10,267 nt of DNA from a virus (lineage: Duplodnaviria > Heunggongvirae > Uroviricota > Caudoviricetes): IMG/VR virus record IMGVR_UViG_2660238499_000007, positions 1-10,267 of that record, one strand, 5' to 3'. The first letter of the stretch is position 1, and the number at the start of each line of letters is the position of its first letter. Positions 7,544 through 8,076 of the stretch are shown in pieces. Position numbers and translations under genes: made by a program. The notes below the pieces were generated by a model. The model did no database searches and was not told the DNA's origin. It saw nothing but the letters and a program-made list of their open reading frames with translations.

Positions 7544-7744
7544 ATGATTACGCTAAGCGAAATGCTTCGCTCATATAAACCAGATGAACACACTAAGGAC
7601 GCTATCGACTGGCTGGAAGATGATGACTGTAACTATCAGGAAAAAGCCGCTGAATGGTTCTGGGATGCAATAACCGAAAGAGTTAAGGCTGAATATGCCT
7701 TCGCAATATTCAAACGCAGACACATTTTTGGAGAAGCTGCATGA
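7544..7744 (+). CDS. Small acidic hypothetical protein (66 aa), first ORF of the pL operon, translationally coupled to the recT-like gene
   Basis: GGAGG RBS 9 nt upstream of ATG 7544; the stop overlaps the next start (ATGA at 7741-7744). MITLSEMLRSYKPDEHTKDAIDWLEDDDCNYQEKAAEWFWDAITERVKAEYAFAIFKRRHIFGEAA has no Arg-rich N-like motif; family not recognised. Confidence 0.5.
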   Translation: MITLSEMLRSYKPDEHTKDAIDWLEDDDCNYQEKAAEWFWDAITERVKAEYAFAIFKRRHIFGEAA

Positions 7745-8076
7745 GCAATATCGTTGAATTCGTTAAACAGCAGGAGCAGTTATTCTGCGGAGCATTGACT
7801 GAACAGACGGTGACATGGGCTAAGGAAAGCCAGTTTGCAATTCAGTATTTCCAGAAAAACGATTACCTGGCTAAAACAGCACTGGCAAATCCAACCAGCG
7901 CACAGAACGCCATCATCAATGTTGCGGCGATCGGCATCACCTTAAACCCGGCCAGCAAACTGGCTTATCTGGTTCCTCGCGACGGCATGGTGTGCCTTGA
8001 TATCAGTTACATGGGATTACTTCATCTTGCGCAATCGACAGGATCAATTAAGTGGGGGCAATGCAAACTGGTGTAA
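7741..8076 (+). CDS. RecT/Red-beta-family single-strand annealing protein, N-terminal fragment (truncated, likely pseudogene)
   Basis: 111 aa; AIINVAAIGITLNPASKLAYLVPRDGMVCLDISYMGLLHLAQSTGSI parallels the RecT core (AIVQCSQLGLEPGSALGHAYLLPFG...QLIIGYRGMIDLARRSGQI) as recalled. Full-length members are about 260-270 aa; the frame stops at 8076 where an AT-rich non-coding insert begins. Confidence 0.5.
   Translation: MSNIVEFVKQQEQLFCGALTEQTVTWAKESQFAIQYFQKNDYLAKTALANPTSAQNAIINVAAIGITLNPASKLAYLVPRDGMVCLDISYMGLLHLAQSTGSIKWGQCKLV

Follow-up and report, generated by a model that had tools for sequence, protein, structure and literature searches.

A chimeric 66-codon reading frame and a recT remnant at a probable double deletion scar in a decayed Escherichia coli prophage

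Two short reading frames downstream of pL

The stretch of DNA considered here (the window, 10,267 nucleotides (nt), positions 1 to 10,267 of IMG/VR record IMGVR_UViG_2660238499_000007) is a heavily deleted defective lambdoid prophage of Escherichia coli, about 10 kb in size, which adjoins sbcB. Our subject is a pair of overlapping open reading frames (ORFs) in its early-left region: a small acidic ORF of 66 codons and, directly behind it, a recT-like ORF of 111 codons. Along the window, genes run from those for an acyltransferase and a tailspike through a Mnt/Arc-like gene, a fragment of replication gene O, cII, and cro to the gene for a CI-type repressor; next come a broken BstA gene, pL and nutL, the two ORFs under study, some small genes of the early-left region, xis, and int, which is broken (Table 1).

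The product of the upstream ORF, 66 amino acids (aa) long, begins MITLSEML and has an isoelectric point of 4.72, with 15 aspartate and glutamate residues against 9 lysines and arginines. A GGAGG motif stands 9 nt ahead of its ATG, and an ATGA stop/start overlap at 7741-7744 links it to the 111-aa ORF. An initial annotation of this DNA had singled out the same features (an acidic 66-aa ORF, a ribosome-binding site, and an ATGA overlap with a recT-like gene), and all of them are present where it placed them. The same overlap with the first recombination gene recurs in RM11911, mEpX1, EH01-18-04-A, and SEN22, as well as in loci L016 and L018. The ORF is a real coding sequence and not a chance reading frame: its 66-aa product matches the family phrog_3486 with an E value of 5.6e-33, but the match covers profile positions 40-102 of 102 only. 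When the intact 102-aa protein was compared with the window by tblastn, its residues 40-102 alone were matched. On this sequence evidence, the 66-aa ORF is a member of phrog_3486 by descent that has been truncated at its 5' end. The exact protein is deposited as WP_249440021.1, 'hypothetical protein [Escherichia coli]', and is found on 36 contigs.

The downstream ORF resembles the RecT/Red-beta annealases (PF03837, TIGR00616), for example those of phages HK140 and mEpX1, through its N-terminal RecT sequence. Its product scores 26.8 bits against Pfam PF03837 (cut-off 24; profile positions 4-76 of 198) and matches phrog_148 with an E value of 2.6e-34 (positions 28-132 of 387), but differs from full annealases in reaching only 17.6 bits against TIGR00616, below the cut-off of 52.65, compared with 76.8 bits for an intact relative. 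Residues 1-111 are identical to those of the E. coli prophage RecT WP_000065845.1, with 100% identity at the DNA level. The annealase domain is incomplete, about one third of it being encoded by the 111 of 300 residues; recT homology stops at 8075, and blastn revealed no other piece of recT in the window. The view that the annealase ends after about 111 aa was, therefore, correct, and the gene is confirmed as a recT truncated after 111 of about 300 residues.

Table 1. Features of the recombination-module remnant, followed by other features of the window and the P22 arf gene used for comparison. Positions are those of the window unless a locus is named.
Feature	Position	Strand	Description
pL-type early-left promoter	7369-7397	+	TTGACA, 17 nt, GATACT; 10/12 matches in promoter scan
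nutL boxB hairpin	7466-7480	+	GCGCTGACAAAGCGC; H-19B/BP-4795/mEp234 type; position transferred from the mEp234 annotation
Start of the upstream ORF in the N leader	7530-7553	+	Shine-Dalgarno GGAGG (7530-7534) and ATGATTACGC (7544-7553)
Small acidic ORF, chimeric	7544-7744	+	66 aa (ORF list); 3 leader codons plus codons 40-102 of the phrog_3486 gene (possibly Gam-fold-like)
Junction 1	7554-7555	+	TA microhomology; N-leader DNA to codon 40 of the 102-aa gene
recT remnant	7741-8076	+	111 aa; codons 1-111 of a 300-codon RecT gene; TAA made at the deletion junction
Junction 2	8074-8075	+	TA microhomology; recT codon 111 to 3' end of DUF550 gene
Last 49 nt of DUF550-family gene	8074-8122	+	Includes TGA 8120-8122; distal side of deletion 2
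CI-type repressor	5644-6357		237 aa, apparently intact
KilA-N ORF of broken bstA	6389-6730		phrog_6287 positions 6-121 of 304
Second same-frame ORF of broken bstA	6770-7075		phrog_6287 positions 164-253
Replication-O-like gene	4225-4728	-	Cut after ~165 residues
Theta gene remnant (HolE-like, DNA polymerase III)	8471-8752		Phage-borne
Split integrase, two overlapping ORFs	9433-9906 and 9870-10121	-	
P22 arf	L021 3869-4012	-	47 aa; compared with alignment A5

Two junctions with TA microhomology

The limits of the module were set by megablast searches of 50,697 phage records and 5,426 complete E. coli genomes. Homology to modules consisting of a hypothetical protein and RecT is limited to window positions 7554-8075, where identity to RM11911 and EH01-18-04-A is 100% over 522 nt, and none of the phage records or complete E. 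coli genomes covers at least 80% of positions 7350-8250 or spans either junction. On the left, the leader of H-19B and BP-4795 that spans pL, nutL, and the start of N shares 99.3% identity with positions 7403-7553, and the longer flank 4838-7555 is 99.8% identical to the prophage of E. coli 1008S19. The homology to 1008S19 continues up to 7555 and that to the module sets in at 7554; in the alignment, ATGATTACGC is N-leader DNA, and from 7554 onwards the reading frame continues in register with codon 40 of the 102-aa gene (WP_000604110.1; gp35 of mEpX1). Because the 1008S19 leader reads ATGATTACGCTAccgg, the two sides of junction 1 share a TA microhomology of 2 nt. Missing at this junction are ral, other early-left genes, and N itself, the gene that the remaining nutL boxB served. 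The pL-type promoter is the sole promoter-like site on the + strand upstream of the two ORFs, and its region is 98% identical, in alignment, to the stretch of phage mEp234 where pL, oL1-oL3, and the transcript start are annotated.

The start signals of the 66-aa ORF have a traceable origin as well. In BP-4795, the ATG equivalent to that at 7544 is annotated as the start of N, 22 codons before the arginine-rich MTRRTQFKGN, and in E. coli 1008S19 the same ATG opens an upstream ORF of 22 codons that ends ATATGA on the N start. The ribosome-binding site thus belongs to the N leader, and the 66-aa ORF now takes its start from the GGAGG and the first 10 nt of the upstream ORF there; the 'strong' site that had been credited to the gene as its own, and the start codon with it, were acquired from the leader. 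The compared leaders (L005 5690-5775; L002 1642-1710) differ in that a 1-nt difference in BP-4795 puts the leader ATG in frame with N, which is annotated from there as a protein of 149 aa. The N annotation of BP-4795 is probably overlong by 22 codons; alternatively, there is a real leader peptide, coupled to N.

At junction 2, comparison with the intact EH01-18-04-A prophage (L004) by blastn is instructive. Positions 5012-5533 of that prophage correspond to window 7554-8075 and positions 9966-12020 to window 8074-10124, so that relative to it the window lacks 4,432 bp, with a TA overlap at the join. Past 8074 the end of the DUF550 gene leads on to two hypothetical genes, the first of them small, with a theta pseudogene between them, and then to xis and int; the intact prophage has the identical order downstream, 4.4 kb past recT codon 111.

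These alignments bear directly on the original interpretation of the locus, in which the 66-aa ORF was an intact small partner, coupled to a recT gene that had been cut by the insertion of a moron. The ORF, its ribosome-binding site, and the ATGA overlap do exist, and an AT-rich stretch with small ORFs does come after recT. However, the ORF spans family positions 40-102 only and its first 10 nt are N-leader DNA, so that the supposedly intact partner is a leader fragment of 10 nt fused to codons 40-102 of a 102-aa gene. Likewise, the DNA past 8074 is the normal distal part of the operon in intact prophages, and the missing 4.4 kb, which includes the remainder of recT, has not been moved elsewhere in the window but is gone from it. 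The alignment with EH01-18-04-A rules out a moron insertion, recT having been cut instead by the internal 4,432-bp deletion, and we regard the intact-partner interpretation as a whole as extremely improbable. Nearer the mark was a refutation that the initial annotation had itself envisaged, namely that the ORF might be the C-terminal end of a longer exonuclease gene whose 5' part had been deleted. In substance this is what was found, with the difference that the longer gene does not encode an exonuclease: searches of Pfam, PHROGs, NCBIfam, and PDB sequences gave no nuclease match for the ORF or for its parent, which is a complete gene of 102 aa and no part of a nuclease, and a RecE C-terminus is rejected on these grounds.

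The arrangement was also recovered in other genomic material. Eight independent assemblies match the window at 99.8-100% identity across both junctions, and because both junctions are present in each of them, an assembly artefact is ruled out; the two-junction arrangement is real and clonal. A scan of a genome collection for the exact sequence of junction 1 gave no matches, and the remnant was found through an exact-protein look-up instead. Its carriers are one NCBI assembly and several metagenome and Logan assemblies, some of them from the human gut; the isolate of GCA_050029375.1 is an example of a carrier strain. The look-up placed the remnant beside sbcB, yeeD, and yeeE, with int broken by an IS3-family element.

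The explanation we favor, to which we assign a probability of about 0.88, is that two deletions have scarred this region of a decayed E. coli prophage and that both ORFs are remnants of its recombination module. There are two junctions of illegitimate recombination, with TA microhomology at each. On this reading, the first deletion extends from 10 nt into the upstream ORF of the N leader to codon 40 of the 102-aa gene, removing N, the proximal early-left genes, and the first 39 codons of the 102-aa gene; by chance it kept the reading frame, giving rise to a 66-aa chimera that uses the GGAGG and ATG of the leader. The second fused codon 111 of recT to the final 49 nt of the DUF550 gene, thereby creating an immediate stop and removing two thirds of recT along with about 4 kb of downstream genes. 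Only pL could drive transcription of the remnants, and the CI-type repressor that the window encodes would be expected to keep this promoter shut.

Junction 1 may alternatively have arisen by illegitimate recombination between two co-resident prophages rather than by deletion inside one, with one parent contributing lambda-type immunity and an H-19B-type nutL and the other the RecT module. Consistent with this route, the 1008S19 prophage, despite its near identity to the left flank, has a Rad52-type recombinase in place of the RecT module, and the megablast searches found no single intact relative with both flanks. Lambdoid phages are mosaic, however, which makes it plausible that a parent carrying both parts has gone unsampled, and the outcome for the 66-aa ORF would be the same by either path. 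We consider the two-prophage route unlikely, though not negligibly so.

The products of both remnants are most likely non-functional. The RecT fragment, as judged from the third or so of the annealase domain left to it, would be unable to anneal DNA. The 66-aa fragment is most likely inactive, since it lacks two of the five helices of what is modeled as a compact bundle in the parent and since the deleted helices are collinear with the channel-plugging helix of lambda Gam, discussed below. Several observations weigh on the other side: the fusion is in frame and has a usable ribosome-binding site, no terminator was found on the + strand between pL and the two ORFs, and the remnant ORFs are 100% identical in DNA sequence to intact copies, with no visible decay. 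Given identity of this degree, neither decay nor selection can be read from the sequences.

It is conceivable, but improbable in our view, that the headless 66-aa fragment is functional by virtue of its C-terminal three-helix part, which bears an acidic DDDCNYQE motif. For instance, perhaps it binds RecBCD weakly, or poisons dimers of related phage proteins, or has been kept as an SOS/pL-inducible host factor. The in-frame fusion, the placement of GGAGG at a spacing of 9 nt, the terminator-free path from pL, and the lack of mutations relative to intact copies would all suit such a role, as would the carriage of the fragment in many E. coli and gut-metagenome assemblies and the existence of other family variants in which the same 43-51 aa at the C-terminus follow N-termini of different kinds. 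Against this, an in-frame fusion is expected by chance in one case out of three, and 99.8-100% identity among the carriers reflects recent clonal spread and not long-term selection. The parent, moreover, is modeled as a single compact bundle that the loss of two of five helices would probably destabilize, Gam's N-terminal helix is a major part of the block that Gam imposes (PMC5218532), and bstA, theta, int, recT, and O in or near the same remnant are broken as well.

The intact parent family and its likeness to Gam and Arf

Intact relatives of the 66-aa ORF are 102-103 aa long and stand beside a RecT of 300 aa. A full-length recT does exist in related prophages, there behind the 102-103-aa form of the upstream ORF. 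An exhaustive HMMER scan identified 46 family representatives at E <= 0.001, and of these the more distant are mostly full length. A set of 30 family sequences (alignment A5), with identities down to about 30%, ranges from 97 to 107 aa in length, so that the 66-aa form is not a natural length for the family.

The gene occupies a consistent position in all the loci that were examined. E. coli phages and prophages have cIII or small genes first, then the 102-aa gene, RecT, and Gp157, and in members at 31-60% identity the gene lies directly upstream of RecT, mostly overlapping it, with a YqaJ exonuclease gene following. The parent gene thus comes after cIII in intact relatives, while in the window its own upstream neighbors have been deleted, and its position is the one taken by gam in lambda, by gamL in phi80, and by arf in P22. 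Phage HK140 also carries the 102-aa gene. In Salmonella phage SEN22, a 102-aa gene that is 95% identical precedes a PD-(D/E)XK (DUF3799) RecE-like nuclease, not RecT. In the SEN22 locus (L015 3380-5078), a 189-aa phrog_11517 protein of unknown function also stands in the place of RecT, and the DNA ceases to match the window precisely where the 102-aa gene ends, a clean mosaic boundary.

The 66-aa ORF, its 102-aa parent, and the family profiles gave nothing significant in Pfam, NCBIfam, or PDB sequences. No mention of the phrog_3486 family identifiers was found in the literature, and the 102-aa gene is unnamed in the available main text of a 2025 census of lambdoid Rec modules (PMC12315714). 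A first structure model of the parent was weaker, with a mean predicted local distance difference test score (pLDDT) of 75; an AlphaFold2 model built on the 30-sequence alignment reached a pLDDT of 91.2 and a predicted template modeling score (pTM) of 0.77, with five helices at residues 5-16, 20-34, 40-46, 53-63, and 65-101.

The census recognizes four types of anti-RecBCD protein, namely Gam, GamL, Abc2, and MuGam, and describes Gam and GamL as different in sequence but similar in predicted fold (PMC12315714). In GamS, one long N-terminal helix enters the RecB channel for the 3' single-stranded DNA tail, and acidic side chains mimic duplex DNA (PMC5218532). In a comparison of family and GamS alignments with hhalign, family positions 53-76 matched GamS 58-81 over 24 locally collinear columns with a score of 24.0 (P = 7.7e-4), as against a mean of 11.3 (standard deviation 2.1, maximum 17.3) for 200 column shuffles and 11.3 for the reversed profile. 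The match is centered on the best-conserved motif of both, D-V-x-F-Q-E in Gam and [DS]-D-[VC]-x-[FY]-Q-[ED] in the family. The genes are alike in setting too, for in intact relatives the 102-aa gene lies between cIII/kil and the annealase gene in the pL operon, as gam does in lambda. Parent residues 1-39, which are deleted from the ORF in the window, are collinear with GamS residues 1 to about 44. In contrast to lambda Gam (GamS, PDB 2UUZ/5MBV; PF06064), a RecBCD inhibitor with which the family shares 16% identity and no Pfam or hidden Markov model match, the predicted N-terminal part of the parent consists of two helices and not one long helix.

The GamL protein of phi80 (PHI80_39, 93 aa; 'host RecBCD/SbcCD enzymes inhibitor') is likewise small and encoded directly upstream of a RecT-type annealase. 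Its resemblance to the family is marginal (hhalign P = 0.008 over 85 collinear columns with a probability of 5%; BLASTP E value 3), and it has the MNAYL..DRIE N-terminus of Gam, which phrog_3486 proteins lack. By the census's account of its different sequence type and similar predicted fold (PMC12315714), GamL is an earlier example of a Gam-fold protein that cannot be tied to its kin through sequence searches. Neither lambda Gam nor phi80 GamL is detectable in the examined loci that carry the 102-aa family.

Taken with its size of about 100 aa, its acidity, and its all-helical model, these comparisons suggest that the intact parent is an accessory protein of the recombination module with a lambda-Gam-like fold and that it would probably block the host RecBCD nuclease. 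Several findings weigh against such a kinship. The hhalign probability for the Gam match is 25%; none of 30 family members matches Pfam PF06064 even at E <= 10; profile searches of PDB sequences with the family do not recover Gam; and Foldseek found neither Gam nor anything below an E value of 2.5 in the PDB with the first model, and one probable family member but no Gam in BFVD with the better one. In addition, intact E. coli modules already carry Gp157, which is Mu-Gam-like according to PHROGs and may be the anti-RecBCD function there (PMC12315714); the census lists HK140 as SAP type 4, with MuGam and without a nuclease. Finally, the N-terminal half of the family gives a comparably weak signal to Arf of P22, a recombination cofactor of unknown mechanism.

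The likeness to Arf raises the possibility, itself rather doubtful, that the 102-aa parent is an Arf-like cofactor of the phage recombinase and no RecBCD inhibitor at all, its likeness to Gam being that of any helical bundle. P22 Arf overlaps erf just as the 102-aa gene overlaps recT, and family positions 16-46 align with Arf 10-38 with an hhalign score of 20.0 (P = 0.0012), beyond the maximum of 16.9 in 150 shuffles, a weak similarity that includes an EV-E--L ... NP pattern. The absence of a Pfam Gam match in the family and the presence of a Mu-Gam-like Gp157 in E. coli modules would also fit this alternative. The hhalign probability of the Arf match is 20%, Arf is half the length of the parent and has no counterpart to its C-terminal half, and the matched N-terminal half is absent from the ORF in the window, which keeps only the C-terminal one. 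The molecular function of Arf is given as unknown in the census (PMC12315714). Among other family variants that carry the same C-terminal 43-51 aa on different N-termini is P0012, a 69-aa variant from E. coli with an Arf-like SDEEFI N-terminus on the conserved C-terminal 43 residues; together with the likeness to Arf, it suggests domain shuffling inside this small gene.

P22 Abc2, an anti-RecBCD protein, and Abc1 were also considered as identities for the family and were rejected, as comparison revealed no similarity to either. The initial suggestion of a Gam- or Abc-like protein is, therefore, plausible in its Gam half for the 102-aa parent, whereas Abc2 drops out and the copy in the window is headless in any case. 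It is tempting to speculate that phrog_3486 is an unrecognized Gam-fold protein of Rec modules, possibly related to Arf, although we hold this only tentatively and at less than even odds. We would be just as guarded about its more specific form, in which the family adds to Gam and GamL a third RecBCD inhibitor that has the lambda-Gam fold but a sequence type of its own, with an N-terminal half homologous to Arf.

The surrounding remnant and what the scar means

The rest of the window has decayed along with the recombination module. The BstA-type abortive-infection gene that comes next after the repressor is broken (6389-7148): its BstA_C piece sits in another frame than the two ORFs listed in Table 1, and about 40 residues are gone between the parts. 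In the 1008S19 prophage, which is 99.8% identical, only the KilA-N part of the BstA gene is annotated. Within 384-4728, the O-like fragment abuts the Mnt/Arc-like gene, a tailspike gene of 764 aa, and an Acyl_transf_3 acyltransferase gene, and the late region of the prophage is wholly gone; in some carriers the tailspike is split into parts of 343 and 393 aa. The chief intact survivors are the immunity genes and a possible O-antigen-modifying gene.

On the distal side, another ORF of 66 aa (8547-8747) within the theta remnant matches profile positions 35-67 of 70 only, and the EH01-18-04-A annotation lists the theta homolog there as a pseudogene that contains an internal stop. Longer contigs show int interrupted by the IS3-family element (HTH_Tnp_1 and rve; L006 9890-12126), and the final stretch of the window, some 140 nt, is probably the end of this insertion sequence, since homology to the intact prophage stops at 10124.

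For the window itself, the finding is one of ordinary prophage decay, and WP_249440021.1 and the 111-aa RecT are deletion debris that is best read as pseudogene fragments. The parent family is of broader interest, as phrog_3486 is a widespread small protein that opens the recombination modules of many lambdoid and P22-like enterobacterial phages and is annotated as hypothetical everywhere. If the parent does inhibit RecBCD, tallies of phages said to be 'lacking an anti-RecBCD gene' would have to be corrected, and the protein could serve as a compact additional recombineering tool alongside RecT-type annealases. HK140, mEpX1, and Kapi1 would then hold both a Gam-fold and a Gp157/Mu-Gam-like protein, with the window retaining only a headless fragment of the former. 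And if the Gam fold and the homology to Arf both prove true, the long-unexplained Arf would be tied to the Gam type of host-nuclease control.
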